From assembly GCF_003334255.1 (NCBI RefSeq), contig NZ_QOWU01000062.1: a stretch of DNA of 27,246 bases. One strand, 5' to 3'. Origin of the DNA: Escherichia coli (GTDB lineage: Bacteria; Pseudomonadota; Gammaproteobacteria; Enterobacterales; Enterobacteriaceae). Positions 6,001 through 12,000 of the stretch are shown piece by piece. Within the stretch, counting starts at the first letter, position 1, and every line of letters begins with the position of its first letter. Position numbers: made by a program.

Positions 6001-9000
6001 GCGACGACGTTCACGTTCATCACATCCATGTCCGGACAGAGATGACGGACGGGCAGCCTGAAACTGGATCGTTCCGCTTCTGCTCATATCCGGCGAATTA
6101 AAGTTCCCTTCACGCGCACGTTTCATCACAGCCAGCATCCAGCCAACGGGATTCTGAAGCGTATTTTTGCTGAGCATCTGTGACAGGCCGTCCAGCACAC
6201 CTTCCGCCAGCGTTTCCGGCAACGCCTGCAGTTGCTTCGTCAGCATGCAGGTATCTTCCACGCTGAGTTGTGATTTCAGTGCATCCGGCAATACGTACGT
6301 ATTTTTTTTCATACTGTGTGTAATATTACGTACGTAGTGGTTCGGTTTCCGTACTGTGTGATAACTCACTGATTTTTCTGGTTGTTCGGAATCCGTACTG
6401 CGTTGCGTTACCTCTGTTTTTTCTCCAGGTTCGGTTACCGCAGTACAGAGTTCGGTTACCTGAGCACTGAGTTCGGTTACCGACGCACATACAGGGGGCT
6501 GTGCGGATCCCGAACCGCTCTTCGCTGCACGGCCATTCACCGCCGGATTTACCCGCTGACGCGCTGCCATCTGAGACGGTGTCTGCGCTGCGCCCATCCG
6601 TGATTCAAACAGCGTGATATGGCTGTGGTAATGCCGCATACCAGGTTCATTTTTGATATCACTGAGAACCTCTCTGGCGGTATACCGGATGGTCTTGTTC
6701 CTGTTCTTGCATGCAGAATCCAGCACCATATCCAGGTAGCGGGGGTCAAACTTTTCTGCATCACAACAGCCAAGAGGTTCATCATGCAGGGCGTAGATAT
6801 TTCCACGGATACGGCCTTTTTCATCACGAACCCGTTTACACAGACTCAGCCAGCCGGTCAGCCGAAGCATGGTCAGTACCCGGCTTACGGTTTCACGGGA
6901 TGCCTTCCCGCTTCCGGGTGAGGCCAGCTGTAACTGAAGTTCATCGTAGGTGGGGAATACCGCGCCCTCATTACTCAGCGCATGCAGACGAATCATCATC
7001 CATGCGGTTTTATCAAGAGGAGAAAGCCGTGTGTCCAGCAGCAGCCGACGGGGCACCGCATCATGAACATTACCGGTAAACAGCAGCCCACTGCGTATCC
7101 TGCCCTCCTCGCGACGGGCTTTCTCTGCCATGCTGGCCTTCATTTTTCTGAGCGTATGCGCAATAAGGCTTTCTGCTGGTAGCGCCATGATTCAATTCTC
7201 CTTCAATCCCGGAAAACAACACCGGGGTTCTGTTACTGAAATGCTTATAACTGCACCCGGCAAAGATGCAGGCTAAACACTTCATCACCCGTAAACCGTT
7301 AATACCGACGGTATTGCGGTTCCTCTGAAAAATATTGCCTTAACAACCAGCACGCTGACGCACTTCGTTTGTCGGCTGCTTCACCGCAACATAAAAAATT
7401 TATGTCACGGTTCAGCAGCTTCAGAACTGACATAACCCCGGCACCTCAGGTTATCCACGGCGATTCCTTTTTGATGCATCATCCACATGCCATGCACTGG
7501 CAAGTGCCTCAGCAACCTGATAAAAGGAATGGCGTACCCGGGTGGTGCATCTTCCCCCGTCAGTAAGGTACTCAACAGCGGTGAGTTCCCCTCCACTTTC
7601 ATGGTCCGGGTAAAACTGTGTCACCTCATTACTGTCGATAATCACAGGCCCCGAAATTGTCTGCATTTTCAGTTTCATTTCACTTGTTCCCCTTTGATAC
7701 GAATACCCGCGGTAGTGCAGACCTGTTCCAGTTCAGCCACCCTCCGCTCACTCGCATCCAGAGCATCAAGCACAACTTTTATTGCCACGGCATGCGCCAT
7801 CGTAGTGATTGCAGGAACAGATCCAGATAACAAAACACGCAACTGCATCCCGGCCTTCTCCAGATTCAACATTCCACTGATTTTTCTCATGAATGATTCT
7901 CCTGTTCCTGAAGGGCTGATATCTGTCGGCACCAATGAACAGCCTGACATGCTTCCTTTAATACCCAGTCAACAGCGTCTTTCCATGCTCCTGTTTCGAC
8001 GGGCGGTTTTTCACGCTTTACCTGTTCATAGAAACGCACTGCTTTAACCAGTCCTTCCGGTACTACTGGCGATGACTGTTTAGCTTCTAAATCAGCAATT
8101 CTGTCAACCACGGCATCGACGGCATCTGAAAAGCCGAACCAGTTACTCCACTCCGGCCTATCCCCGGTTGCTGCAAAATACATATCAGCTAAAGCAGACT
8201 CAGCATGGTCACGCTCGTTGATGAGTTGCTCTTCGATTTTCTCCAGTTCAGCAATGCGCTTACCCCCATCCGAGATAACATCTTCATAATATTCACGCTG
8301 CACGTTGAGTTTTGATTTTGTCTCCTCAAGCTCAACGCGCAGCTTCCCAACCGTAAGAGCAATATCCTCATTCTCCTGGTCGCGGGATTTAATGTATTGC
8401 TGTTTTTCGTCCAGCTCATCCAACAGCTCGGAGATAATATCCACTTCCCGATGACGGATGTGATGCTTAAACGCATCCAGAGCCGCATCACAATCCCGTT
8501 CAGCAGTTGGGCTGTCCGGGATTGCCTGATACCACGCCAGCGTCGACTGATAGTTTTGTGCAGCCTTACGCAGTGACTGATAGTCAATCTTGTTCACTGG
8601 TTGCCTCCTTTGCGAAGCTCTGCGGCAAAGTCAACTAACCACTCGGTCATTTCAACCTTCCCTACCAGGTCTGAACCAGGAAACATACAGCAATCACTCT
8701 GCGCCGCTTTGAAATCCTTATACTCATATTCCTGAGCCACCAGATTTTTTGCAGCTTCTATAACAGCATCCACCCCCTGCGCCCGTACTTCAGCCAGGAA
8801 AGCGTCGGTGGCTGTGGTTTTGATTTCGTTAAGCGCATCACTGAATCCACCACGCTCCATACCTGGCTCTGCTTCGTAATCGGCATCGAATTCAGCGTCT
8901 TTGCAGAACTTCTTCAGCTTTGCATTCTCCGCCGCCAGCGCCGAAAACGTCTCGTGTGCCAACTTAACAGCCGCATCAGCCTGCTTAATTGACTCAGTCG

Positions 9001-12000
9001 CTTTCTGGTGATCTTCGGTCATCGCCGATAAATTAGCCTCCAGTTCGGCTATGCGTTTGCTTTGGGCTTCCCGTTCATCCAGCAGAGCCTGCACAATCGA
9101 TGGTGTTACCAGCTCATGGAAAAGGTCCGCGTCAAATCCCCTGTCGTCATGCATTGCCTGCTCTGCCGCCTCACGCAGTGTCTGATAGTTAATCTTGCTC
9201 ACTGGTTGCCACCTGATTTTCAGCCTTCAGCACCATGCGGGAGCCATCTTCCATTTCCCACATAATTTCACCACCTTCTGCCATGACCAGATGCCAGACA
9301 AGCTGAGCCGCCTCGTTGGTTACATCGCGGCCGGGATCATTTCCGACACGAAGACTGGTTCCGTCGTCAAGATTACGCATTTTTGCCAGCACGATAGTTT
9401 TTGAAAACGGAGAAAAACCCAGCTGGAGTCTTGCTGCATTACTCATCTTTCCACCTCACTTCAGTCTCATGTTGTTGTATCGTTCATGACTCAACAGGGC
9501 CCAGGTCAGCCCTTTATTCCGGCTCAGTAACCGCCAGTCAGGACCAACATCAATCTTGAAATAACCAAATCCCCTTTCCTTCAGTTCATGATAATTCCGC
9601 TCTCCACGACGGAAGCGATTGACCAGTTCAACCGCCTTACGCTGACTGGCGGGAGGGACGCCCGGACTTGTCAGCACTCCGGGAACCAGTTCTGTCATCT
9701 TCATGACGCACTCCTTACCTGATCCGGATTTCCGGTTGTATGCCACCCTCTGACGGCATGCCAGATGGCCGTCAGTGGAATGTTCATCTGTTCAGCACAA
9801 AGCATCATGACATCCAGCCCATCCACACTCTCCACATCATTGATCCCGGCTTTCTGCCACAACCGCCAGAGTTCAGAATTCTCATCGTCACTCAGGGTGA
9901 TCCCCCTTCCGGGACGAACATCAATACCGGAGATACGACGCCGCGCAGCCACATCCACGCTGGAAAGACCAAAATAAAACGCCATGAGTTCGATAGACCC
10001 ACCCAGCGCCAGAGCGCGATCGATTCGCTGCAGACGTTTCTGTTCAGTCCGCGCCTGCTGCAACATGCGCACAAGATTGTTGTGGTTAATATCCAGCCGC
10101 AGCACCGACACTTCTGAATTTGACAGATAGTGAATTTCTTCAATGCTCAGCCCCTGCAGCATCTGCATTTCTTCCCGGGAAAGCCCCAGCGCTTCACATC
10201 GCCGCAGATAGCCACTCTTGAGATCCATCACCAGTTGCATCAACAGCCCGTTGGTGGCCTGTGATAAGTTGTTACTCATACCTCACCTCCGCCCGATATC
10301 AGGCTTTCAGGTCTCAGATTCCGGGAACCAACACCATGATGCAGTGTTGCCTTTTTACCCTCGCTGTATCCCTGCCAGCGTGCACGATCACCACCATTAC
10401 AGTCCTTAACATTCCGGAAGGCAGCCATTCCCTCAAATTGCTGTCTCTTCAGCCACGTCTTCATTACACGCGTCTCATCTTCCGTGAGCGGGAATGCATC
10501 CACCACATCACGCACCCCATAAACCCAGCCGTCACGAAACATGGCTGCTCTTGCCCTTCGGGTTGACAATTTTAATGTCCGGCTCTGGGTTGAAAGATAC
10601 GCCTTTGTTGCCTTTTGCATCTGCCGGCAGAGAACATCAAAGGCATACGCCGCCACAACCGGGCGCTCCCCAAAGCCATAAAATATGACAACCCGCCGCC
10701 AGTACCTTCCGGTTGTGATACGCCAGTCCAGGTATGTATGGCATCCGAATGCCTCTGCAACAACATGCATAAGGCGCCCCATCCATACCGGAACTTTTTC
10801 CGCTTCTGACGGGGCCCCCTTTGATGACGAGGTCTTTATCACCGAAATATCAGTATCCAGTTCAGTGATACCGTGCTTGCGCATCAGCGCCTGAGCACGG
10901 GAAAGTGCCTGGCCTGCCTCATGGGGGTTACTGTTATTCCGGCTCAGCGCCAGCAGTTTTCTTATCCGTTTAATCAGTTGATCCTGACGTGCGGCATCAG
11001 CATTCATCGCGCCCTTCCTCACTCTCGTCTTCCACCATACGCTGCAGCCCCCGCAGACGACGCAACACACCCAGCAGGCGAAGCAACTTTCCTGCATGTT
11101 CATCATCAAGCAACGGCAGGTCTTCTTCAGTACTGCCGCCGATCAGCAGTGCATCAAGGGAAACCGGATTGACCCGCAGAACCTCCTCACCGGTCAGTCT
11201 GACAAGAAATGCCATGACCGGTGAGCAATTTGCCTCTGCCGCACCAAATCCTGCAGACAGCTCACTTTCCCGGTCCATCGCTATCTCATCGACACAGCCT
11301 GTATGTGACGCCAGATCCCATGCGAGGTGAAACGCCTCATTCTGCAAAGATTCGATATCATCCTGTTCAGCACCAGTGAATGCAGATGCCTGGCGAAATT
11401 CTCCCCCCTCCTGCATGGCGTTATCTTCCGGCATTATCGGTATATCAGTTGACGCACCGGTCGCATCCTCTCCGCAATCACCGCTGTATGAGTCTTCACC
11501 ACCATACATATCCGGTTGAACTTCCGTTCTGCGTTGTTCGCGTTTATCTGCGACCGGGCGGTCCTCTTTCTCAGCCCCTGATTGCGCAGTATCCATGACG
11601 CTCTCACTGTCTGCGGGAGTGGCGGCAACGACCTGAGCAGCTTCCGTCGCCCCGCCTGACGCCACCTGCGCCCCCGGTTCCGGGGGGCTGTCCGCCGGCA
11701 TGAGTACCGGTTCAGGTTCACCAAAATGGTGACGTCGATTACGCTCCCGGGGATCCAGCTCCAGCAACCAGCGATCGTAATCCAGTACCGGATGTGGCAG
11801 AGCCTTCAGCAGGTCACCGATCAGCTCGTCCCTGAACATTTCCATGGACCAGAGTTCCGGCGAGTTGAATTTGCCGCAACATTCACCAAACACGCGATCA
11901 AAATCCACATCGTTTTCCGCCGCGACTGCAAACTGCCCCCAGATGCGTTCCGCATCCTGCCGGAGAGACAGTAAGGCTCTGACCTGTGGGCTCCCCATAC

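Follow-up and report, generated by a model that had tools for sequence, protein, structure and literature searches.

Probable composite origin of a six-gene block in an Escherichia coli integrative conjugative element: a conserved ParE_like gene followed by phage-type accessory genes

The locus described here lies in a 27,246-nucleotide (nt) stretch of Escherichia coli DNA (assembly GCF_003334255.1, contig NZ_QOWU01000062.1), the whole of which is called the window below. Positions 1-16614 of the window are part of an integrative conjugative element (ICE) of the SPI-7/PAGI-2/ICEclc type and are 99.96% identical to E. coli 2015C-3121 (NZ_CP027340.1). The gene order at this identical locus in RefSeq is ParA, dnaB-PI, ParB, DUF2786, DUF2857, a block of six small genes, STY4528-family, PFL_4669, topoisomerase III, STY4534 and ssb, followed by TIGR037xx conjugation genes. 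The core-operon order of SPI-7/PAGI-2/ICEclc (dnaB-PI ... Ssb) and a conjugation module of the TIGR037xx type are both present according to RefSeq, NCBIfam and Pfam. The six small genes, numbered g1 to g6 in the 5' to 3' direction of the minus strand, span positions 7451-9704 and are the subject of this report. The block and its immediate surroundings are listed below, where SD stands for a Shine-Dalgarno-like motif and aa for amino acids.

9701-10279, minus strand: upstream flank, DUF2857 protein, homologue of ICEclc BisC (Pfam DUF2857, E=1e-65)
9456-9704, minus strand: g1, 82 aa, ParE_like (PF24732; Pfam E=8e-18); ATGA overlap with the DUF2857 gene; SD TAAGGAG
9189-9446, minus strand: g2, 85 aa, DUF7446 (PF24233; Pfam E=4.9e-15; phrog_1578 E=4e-30); 9-nt gap after g1; SD GAGGTGG
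8594-9202, minus strand: g3, 202 aa, Ead_Ea22 (phrog_368 over the full length, E=5e-54); GTG start; 14-nt overlap with g2; SD AGGTGG
7887-8597, minus strand: g4, 236 aa, Ead_Ea22, with a central coiled coil and a phage-type C-terminal domain (phrog_250 E=1e-61; phrog_26213 at residues 139-221); GTG start; GTGA overlap with g3; SD AAGGAGG
7675-7890, minus strand: g5, 71 aa, ICE-restricted open reading frame with no family match; ATGA overlap with g4; SD CAGGAG
7451-7678, minus strand: g6, 75 aa, phrog_5994 (E=6e-27); ATGA overlap with g5; SD AAGGGG
7281-9455, minus strand: putative phage-derived insert of about 2.2 kb, g2-g6 plus a 170-nt non-coding tail; absent from loci L010-L015 of other genera
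7189-7450, minus strand: structured intergenic region of 262 nt
5902-7188, minus strand: downstream flank, STY4528-family pathogenicity island replication protein (NCBIfam NF040582, 400 bits, cutoff 130)

An initial annotation of this DNA had reported six consecutive minus-strand open reading frames (ORFs) at this position. All six are present, and the RefSeq gene calls in NZ_CP027340.1 are the same six genes. A Shine-Dalgarno-like motif is found 5-10 nt 5' of every start. Profile searches of each protein place five of the six in Pfam or PHROG families, while an NCBIfam scan of the six proteins gave nothing meaningful. The ratio of non-synonymous to synonymous substitution rates (dN/dS) relative to sibling ICEs is 0.07-0.13 for g1, 0.18-0.28 for g2 and 0.31-0.46 for g6. 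Taken with the Pfam and PHROG matches, these ratios argue that the genes of the block are not chance ORFs. All six proteins are already annotated publicly in RefSeq under the same family labels, and the database entries for g2-g6, the five that were looked up, come from E. coli only. The genes dnaB-PI, parB, DUF2786, DUF2857 and g1-g6 form an unbroken overlapping or coupled chain, and a consensus scan found no minus-strand promoter-like or terminator-like site inside the block. The co-regulation proposed in the initial annotation is plausible from the sequence on these grounds.

The block was compared with the equivalent position in ICEs of other genera. One genome per species was scanned with a DUF2857 alignment, and seven loci were obtained. 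At six of them (L010-L015; Kluyvera, two Erwinia species, Edwardsiella, Chimaeribacter and Mixta) the DUF2857 gene is joined through ATGA to a g1 homologue, followed by about 100 nt with a conserved hairpin and then by the STY4528-family gene. None of the genes g2-g6 is present at these six non-E. coli loci. The remaining locus, from Serratia microhaemolytica, lacks g1 as well. The ancestral hairpin CCTGCATCTTTGCCGGGTGCAG, which lies 5' of the STY4528 gene in other genera also, is retained in the E. coli element at 7251-7272. The loci without g2-g6, together with the retention of this hairpin, indicate that g2-g6 and the tail were inserted at the g1/STY4528 junction. The guanine-plus-cytosine fraction is 0.498 in the insert and 0.533-0.546 in its flanks. 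A 44-aa ORF in the tail of the insert (7433..7299, minus strand) was rejected as a gene; its ATG is lost in sibling ICEs.

Within E. coli, the site is variable. Among 5426 complete genomes, DUF2857 together with g1 occurs in 66, g5 together with g6 in 54, and at least 80% of the whole block in 4. The distance from g1 to g5 in E. coli genomes is 1566, 1743, 1921, 1972, 2427 or 3008 bp, and at least eight different architectures are found at the g1/STY4528 site of E. coli ICEs. The following fillings illustrate them.

TUM9803: two Ea22-like genes, an XF1762-family gene and others
SCU-171: a single Ea22-like gene (245 aa) and a gene of 157 aa
AR_0089: several Ea22 fragments and pseudogenes, one after another
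5CRE51: an HNH endonuclease
NC101: g1 with genes of 91 aa and 142 aa, the latter Ea22-like
RM11911: g1 and the 91-aa gene only

The right arm of the insert, consisting of the last ~60 codons of g4, g5, g6 and the tail, is conserved. The genes of the block have three different evolutionary distributions, with a variable hotspot in the middle, and the earlier description of the block as a single six-gene module does not hold. In the comparison of related ICEs that had been recommended, g1 is found in other genera, g2-g6 only in E. coli ICEs, and the fillings differ. Nor are the six genes uniform backbone genes with assigned functions, the finding which would have spoken against a special module; the backbone consists of g1 only, and no function is assigned to any of the six.

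The proteins g3 and g4 had been regarded as clear paralogues with matching N-termini. Both match Pfam Ead_Ea22 (PF13935) at E<=0.001 (best 3.6e-23), and phrog_368 and phrog_250 are both matched by g3, g4 and lambda Ea22. In a BLASTP comparison of g3 with g4, only residues 1-14 align, with 9/14 identical, and the part they share corresponds to a 51-nt junction repeat. Each of them carries a different piece of lambda Ea22. Residues 1-51 of g3 are 78% identical to residues 1-51 of lambda Ea22, while residues 55-122 of g4 match the lambda coiled coil at residues 37-104. The g4 protein is also 68% identical to the Ea22-like protein of phage PDP110P2. Thus g3 and g4 are members of one mosaic family, not duplicates. 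The g4 segment 8071-8597 is complete in 3 of the 5426 genomes, and pieces of it are found in 1012.

Ea22 of lambda is an early protein with a pro-lysogenic effect that forms coiled-coil tetramers (PMC7093339, PMC10834534). Its architecture comprises a short N-terminal domain, a coiled coil and a variable C-terminal domain (PMC10834534). The C-terminal domains of g3 and g4 are dissimilar to that of lambda Ea22, and the terminal +GE of the latter is absent from both: g3 ends with ...RKGGNQ and g4 with ...QEQENHS. Residues 50-166 of g4 show a weak match (E=1.4e-7) to phrog_4790, which is labelled 'host RecBCD nuclease inhibitor'. However, g4 is not similar to lambda Gam or the Gam-like protein of HK639, both of which belong to other PHROGs. 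The match is provisionally treated as a shared coiled-coil segment.

The repeat that links the starts of g3 and g4 is present in two copies.

9164-9214 (no strand assigned): junction ('linker') repeat copy 1, g2/g3 boundary, comprising the SD, the start codon GTG and the first 13 codons
8559-8609 (no strand assigned): junction ('linker') repeat copy 2, g3/g4 boundary; 51-nt direct repeat, copies 88% identical

The repeat begins 12 nt 5' of each GTG, where the gene before it has not yet ended. The genes that precede g3 and g4 have no relationship to each other, and each reads these nucleotides in a different frame (...VATSEQD and stop versus ...GGNQ and stop). Its conservation is therefore at the nucleotide level and concerns the ribosome-binding site, the start and the first codons. 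The core of the repeat, GGCAACCAGTGA, is found again at gene junctions of sibling ICEs and twice in the lambdoid phage PDP110P2. In phage HK620, conserved 'linker' sequences reportedly mark the gene boundaries of the early-left operon.

The kinship with prophage early regions that had been suspected in the initial annotation is strong, since homologues of g2, g3, g4 and g6 are found in lambdoid early operons. The DNA matches to phages (588 records) and to plasmids (largely phage-plasmids) are limited to positions 7939-9445 of the window. In the early-left operon of Wanchaivirus PDP110P2, a 105-aa gene ending in ...GGNQ and stop is followed by a DUF7446 gene, an Ea22-like gene, an XF1762-family gene ending in ...GIRIKGE and stop, and the xis/int side. 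The DUF7446 homologue of this phage is 80% identical to g2 and precedes the Ea22-like gene with the same 14-nt overlap. More generally, g2 has homologues at 75-96% identity in both enterobacterial genomes and phages; they make up over 300 protein clusters and all carry PF24233. In the cross-genus survey g2 was absent from ICEs of other genera. It is a common enterobacterial prophage gene. The XF1762 protein of the TUM9803 ICE (L002, 4365-4856) is 99% identical to the PDP110P2 copy (L004, 3482-4012), which points to a very recent exchange between ICE and phage.

The lambdoid early-left accessory region (exo-xis/ea-ead, including lambda Ea22 and P22 Ead) resembles the block in several respects. 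The same families occur in both (Ead_Ea22, DUF7446 and phrog_5994), the genes are likewise small, overlapping and translationally coupled, and both show segmental mosaicism with conserved junctions and ...KGE gene ends. High mosaicism of the early operons of lambdoid phages is established (PMC2629481). However, the block resides in a conjugative element, where it is presumably under the control of a BisDC-type operon and not of pL/N, and no exo/bet/gam or int/xis genes are found near it.

The two last genes of the block differ in their relatives. For g5 there is no match in Pfam, PHROG or NCBIfam, nor in phages by tblastn, and the gene is confined to E. coli ICEs. Its C-terminus, IRIKGEQVK, contains the KGE end motif of Ea22-type genes. 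This K/R-G-E (+GE) end closes Ea22 proteins and has been described as of unknown significance (PMC7093339). Within the end of g5, AAAGGGGAA provides the SD of g6, which suggests that the K/R-G-E motif is a junction or ribosome-binding element. Compared with two close siblings, g5 has only non-synonymous differences (dN 0.02, dS 0), and compared with a more distant sibling its dN/dS is 0.45; these values derive from small numbers. Selection on g5 may be relaxed or diversifying, or its frame may not be the selected one.

The g6 protein, for which no Pfam family was found, has phage homologues of 47-60% identity in HK639, where the gene adjoins an eae-like gene, and in ST64B, where sb34 lies two genes from the Ea22-like sb32. 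The AlphaFold2 (AF2) model of g6 shows a small barrel of five strands plus a C-terminal helix; the predicted local distance difference test score (pLDDT) is 80, and two of the five models are poor. The best folds in the PDB are Sac7d/Sso7d, with E of 0.016-0.05 and a template modelling score (TM) of about 0.5. These small-barrel matches are a lead towards nucleic-acid or protein binding and no more. PDB sequence searches with g1, g2, g3, g4 and g6 gave no matches. Among the defence models of PADLOC-DB, g4 has weak coiled-coil matches only (E>=2.6e-4, <18 bits), and the other five proteins have none.

The gene g1 differs from the rest of the block in being retained outside E. coli. A word-indexed homologue search gave 5 close relatives of g1; an exhaustive profile search was used instead and gave 98 clusters at E<=1e-3. 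The conserved positions are A24, R58, H73 and Y76. The AF2 model, with a pLDDT of 92, has a single N-terminal helix and extra N-terminal strands, and its best PDB folds in Foldseek are YafQ, HigB, YoeB and RelE, with weak scores (TM 0.45-0.58, E 0.03-0.5). The model is consistent with a minimal RelE/ParE-like fold, though not strongly so. The statement that the block has no obvious enzymatic motif is correct for g2-g6 and has to be modified for g1, in view of its predicted RelE/ParE-like fold with conserved R58, H73 and Y76. The g1 protein resembles type II toxins of the RelE/ParE superfamily (YafQ, HigB, YoeB, RelE and ParE) in its Pfam ParE_like match, in a predicted fold whose best matches are such toxins, and in a conserved Arg and a C-terminal His/Tyr. 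However, g1 has no recognisable cognate antitoxin, it differs in the extra N-terminal strands and the one N-terminal helix, the structural similarity is weak, and g1 and its relatives are located in operons of conjugative elements and phages.

A Pfam scan of the neighbours of five distant g1 homologues found no antitoxin family. There is likewise no adjacent conserved antitoxin gene for g1 itself, as the downstream partner varies or is missing across loci. ParE_like relatives were observed inside an F-like tra operon near TraV/TraR (L021, 3003-3254) and in an early-left operon of small overlapping genes in a temperate phage (L026, 3001-3222). A metagenomic ICE likewise has the ATGA coupling of DUF2857 and ParE_like genes. 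By these comparisons g1 belongs to the conserved backbone, and it is translationally coupled to the gene for the BisC-like activator subunit. The backbone status applies to the enterobacterial ICE clade only, and ICEclc lacks all six genes.

The 262-nt region between g6 and the STY4528-family gene is predicted to be highly structured. The minimum free energy of its RNA fold is -98.1 kcal/mol (z=-5.07 versus shuffles), and a hairpin with 21-nt arms at 7375-7419 hardly varies among five diverged ICE variants of E. coli. No Rfam match was found for the region 7189-7450.

The genes on both sides of the block are those of a known cluster. BisC of ICEclc contains DUF2857 and, with the ParB-like BisD, forms the activator of transfer competence (PMC7423338). 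An earlier described conserved cluster consists of ParA, ParB, DUF2857, an unnamed protein, DUF1845, DUF3158, Ssb and TopB (PMC3334931). The alpA-parA-shi-bisD-bisC-orf96323-orf95213-inrR operon of ICEclc and the PAGI-2/pKLC102/SPI-7 cluster have the same flanking core as found here (ParB-family, DUF2857, STY4528-family, PFL_4669, topoisomerase III, STY4534 and ssb). By its gene coordinates, orf96323 of ICEclc comes directly after bisC (orf97571) (PMC7423338), whereas in the E. coli element g1 and the 2.2-kb insert intervene. In enterobacterial ICEs, a DUF2786/DUF7168 protein (10276-11109 in the window) is encoded between the ParB-like (BisD-like) and DUF2857 (BisC-like) genes. The DUF2857 protein at 9701-10279 has a weak FlhD match (Pfam E=2e-3, NCBIfam E=5e-3), not the FlhC similarity reported for BisC. 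We take ICEEc2 of E. coli BEN374 to be another member of the PAGI-2/pKLC102/SPI-7-type ICEs.

The window has further features outside the six-gene block. On the minus strand at 2251-2402, between topoisomerase III and the STY4534/ssb side of the ICE, there is a full-length STAXI RNA motif (RF01728; 134 bits). The end of the ICE lies near 16614, at the point where identity to NZ_CP027340.1 stops, so that the right-hand neighbour differs from that in strain 2015C-3121. A strong terminator-like hairpin is located at 16623-16651 on the plus strand, and positions 16763-27246 contain the chromosomal type II secretion operon gspC-gspM/yghD. No transfer RNA gene was found in the window.

Fixed sites with exchangeable cargo are familiar from P2/P4-like phages and satellites, which have variable cargo hotspots flanked by conserved core genes. 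The site of the block resembles them in its fixed position between conserved genes and in the differing gene sets of close relatives. It differs from them in that the cargo consists of small phage early-operon genes and fragments, with no recognisable defence systems.

These comparisons make it probable that the block is a composite of the backbone gene g1 and a phage-derived hotspot insertion, g2-g6, in the core operon of the ICE. The insert would have been assembled from gene types of lambdoid early operons, with g2-g4 arranged as in the early-left exo-xis/ea region. Short junctions, comprising SD, start and first codons or the ...KGE ends, would allow segments to be swapped with co-resident lambdoid prophages and phage-plasmids, presumably by homologous recombination at the junction sequences. 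Swapping of this kind might explain why the fillings differ among sibling ICEs. Since no promoter of their own was recognised, g2-g6 would share the transcript of the BisDC-like operon, which would confine their expression to cells with an activated ICE. If they work as Ea22 does in lambda, the Ea22-like g3 and g4 could form oligomeric coiled-coil scaffolds and use their variable C-terminal domains to bind a protein of the host or the element, and they would favour cell survival and stable carriage over the destructive active state. This functional part, taken separately, is tentative and we consider it rather doubtful.

Several points weigh against this explanation. The operon assignment depends on gene spacing and a crude promoter and terminator scan, and the function of lambda Ea22 is itself poorly defined. 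The C-terminal domains of g3 and g4 differ from that of lambda and have no PDB sequence match, and the +GE end is missing from both. In several sibling ICEs only fragments or pseudogenes occupy the site, and purifying selection on g5 is weak or absent; part of the insert may therefore be neutral passenger DNA. The cross-genus survey is also thin, with seven loci.

The alternative that the whole insert is neutral debris of illegitimate or homologous recombination with prophages, now decaying, takes the thought of neutral passenger DNA further. The truncated or frameshifted Ea22 fragments at the site in many siblings would agree with it, and so would g5, which has no relatives outside the ICE and a dN/dS of about 0.45 or undefined. 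However, all five ORFs are intact here, with SD motifs and precise coupling, purifying selection acts on g2 and g6, and g5, g6 and the tail are kept in 54 of the 66 E. coli genomes with DUF2857 and g1. We regard wholesale decay as improbable. At the other extreme, the six genes could form one co-functional and co-inherited module, for example an establishment or host-takeover set of the ICE, as the tight translational coupling, the single orientation and the intact state of all six genes here and in three complete genomes might suggest. This is the least probable of the explanations considered, because g1 occurs without g2-g6 in other genera, siblings have other genes or fragments in place of its middle part, and the whole block is found in only 4 of the 66 genomes with DUF2857 and g1, against 54 genomes with g5 and g6.

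Two further explanations assign a definite role to parts of the block. One is that g1 with g2, or DUF2857 with g1, constitutes a type II toxin-antitoxin pair, with post-segregational killing as the means of stabilising the ICE. The ParE_like assignment of g1 in Pfam, its RelE/ParE-superfamily fold and the conserved R58, H73 and Y76 are in keeping with a toxin, and g1 is ATGA-coupled behind a putative DNA-binding protein in the usual order of antitoxin then toxin. However, g1 is always without g2 outside E. coli, and the phage homologues of g2 are paired with Ea22-like genes, not with ParE-like ones. The ParE_like relatives in F-like tra and phage early operons have no recognisable antitoxin neighbour, and DUF2857/BisC works without g1 in ICEclc and Serratia. 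The fold matches are weak (E >= 0.03), and g1 has no sequence match in the PDB. A toxin-antitoxin pair is quite unlikely on this evidence. The other explanation, by analogy with plasmid leading regions and phage early accessory genes, is that the inserted genes are anti-defence or establishment factors which act early in a new recipient. A variable hotspot between conserved core genes, filled with genes of phage early-operon origin, would be a suitable place for them; ssb, topB and the STAXI RNA follow downstream in the same direction of transcription, and g4 has its weak match (E=1.4e-7) to the PHROG labelled as a host RecBCD nuclease inhibitor. But no match to a characterised anti-defence protein was found, g4 is unrelated to lambda Gam and the HK639 Gam-like protein, and the PADLOC matches are coiled-coil noise only. 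This role is unlikely too, if slightly less so than a toxin-antitoxin pair.

The composite explanation may be carried one step further, although the result is speculative and the odds are clearly against it. In this extension the BisDC bistability switch would have g1 as its third component, in the role of a toxin-like growth-arrest factor or of a co-regulator in transfer-competent cells, and the Ea22-like proteins of the ICE would hold resident lambdoid prophages, Stx prophages among them, in lysogeny while the ICE is active. The loose ends of most interest are the RelE/ParE-like g1 coupled to the BisC-like subunit and the structured 262-nt region.

The discovery is a modest one. All six proteins were already in RefSeq, and mosaicism of this type is well known in phages. 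The block is ordinary mosaic accessory DNA and adds one more case, this time in an ICE, of a hotspot that holds mosaic accessory genes of phage type. Its meaning is that lambdoid phages and a conjugative element which share a host draw on a common pool of small early-operon genes. The swapping of genes at conserved junctions takes place inside the core operon of the ICE, the counterpart of which in ICEclc encodes the switch to transfer competence. The natural series of sites, from the empty site through g1 only to the various phage fillings, could be used to test the roles of the Ea22 family, DUF7446 and ParE_like proteins, all three of which are widespread.

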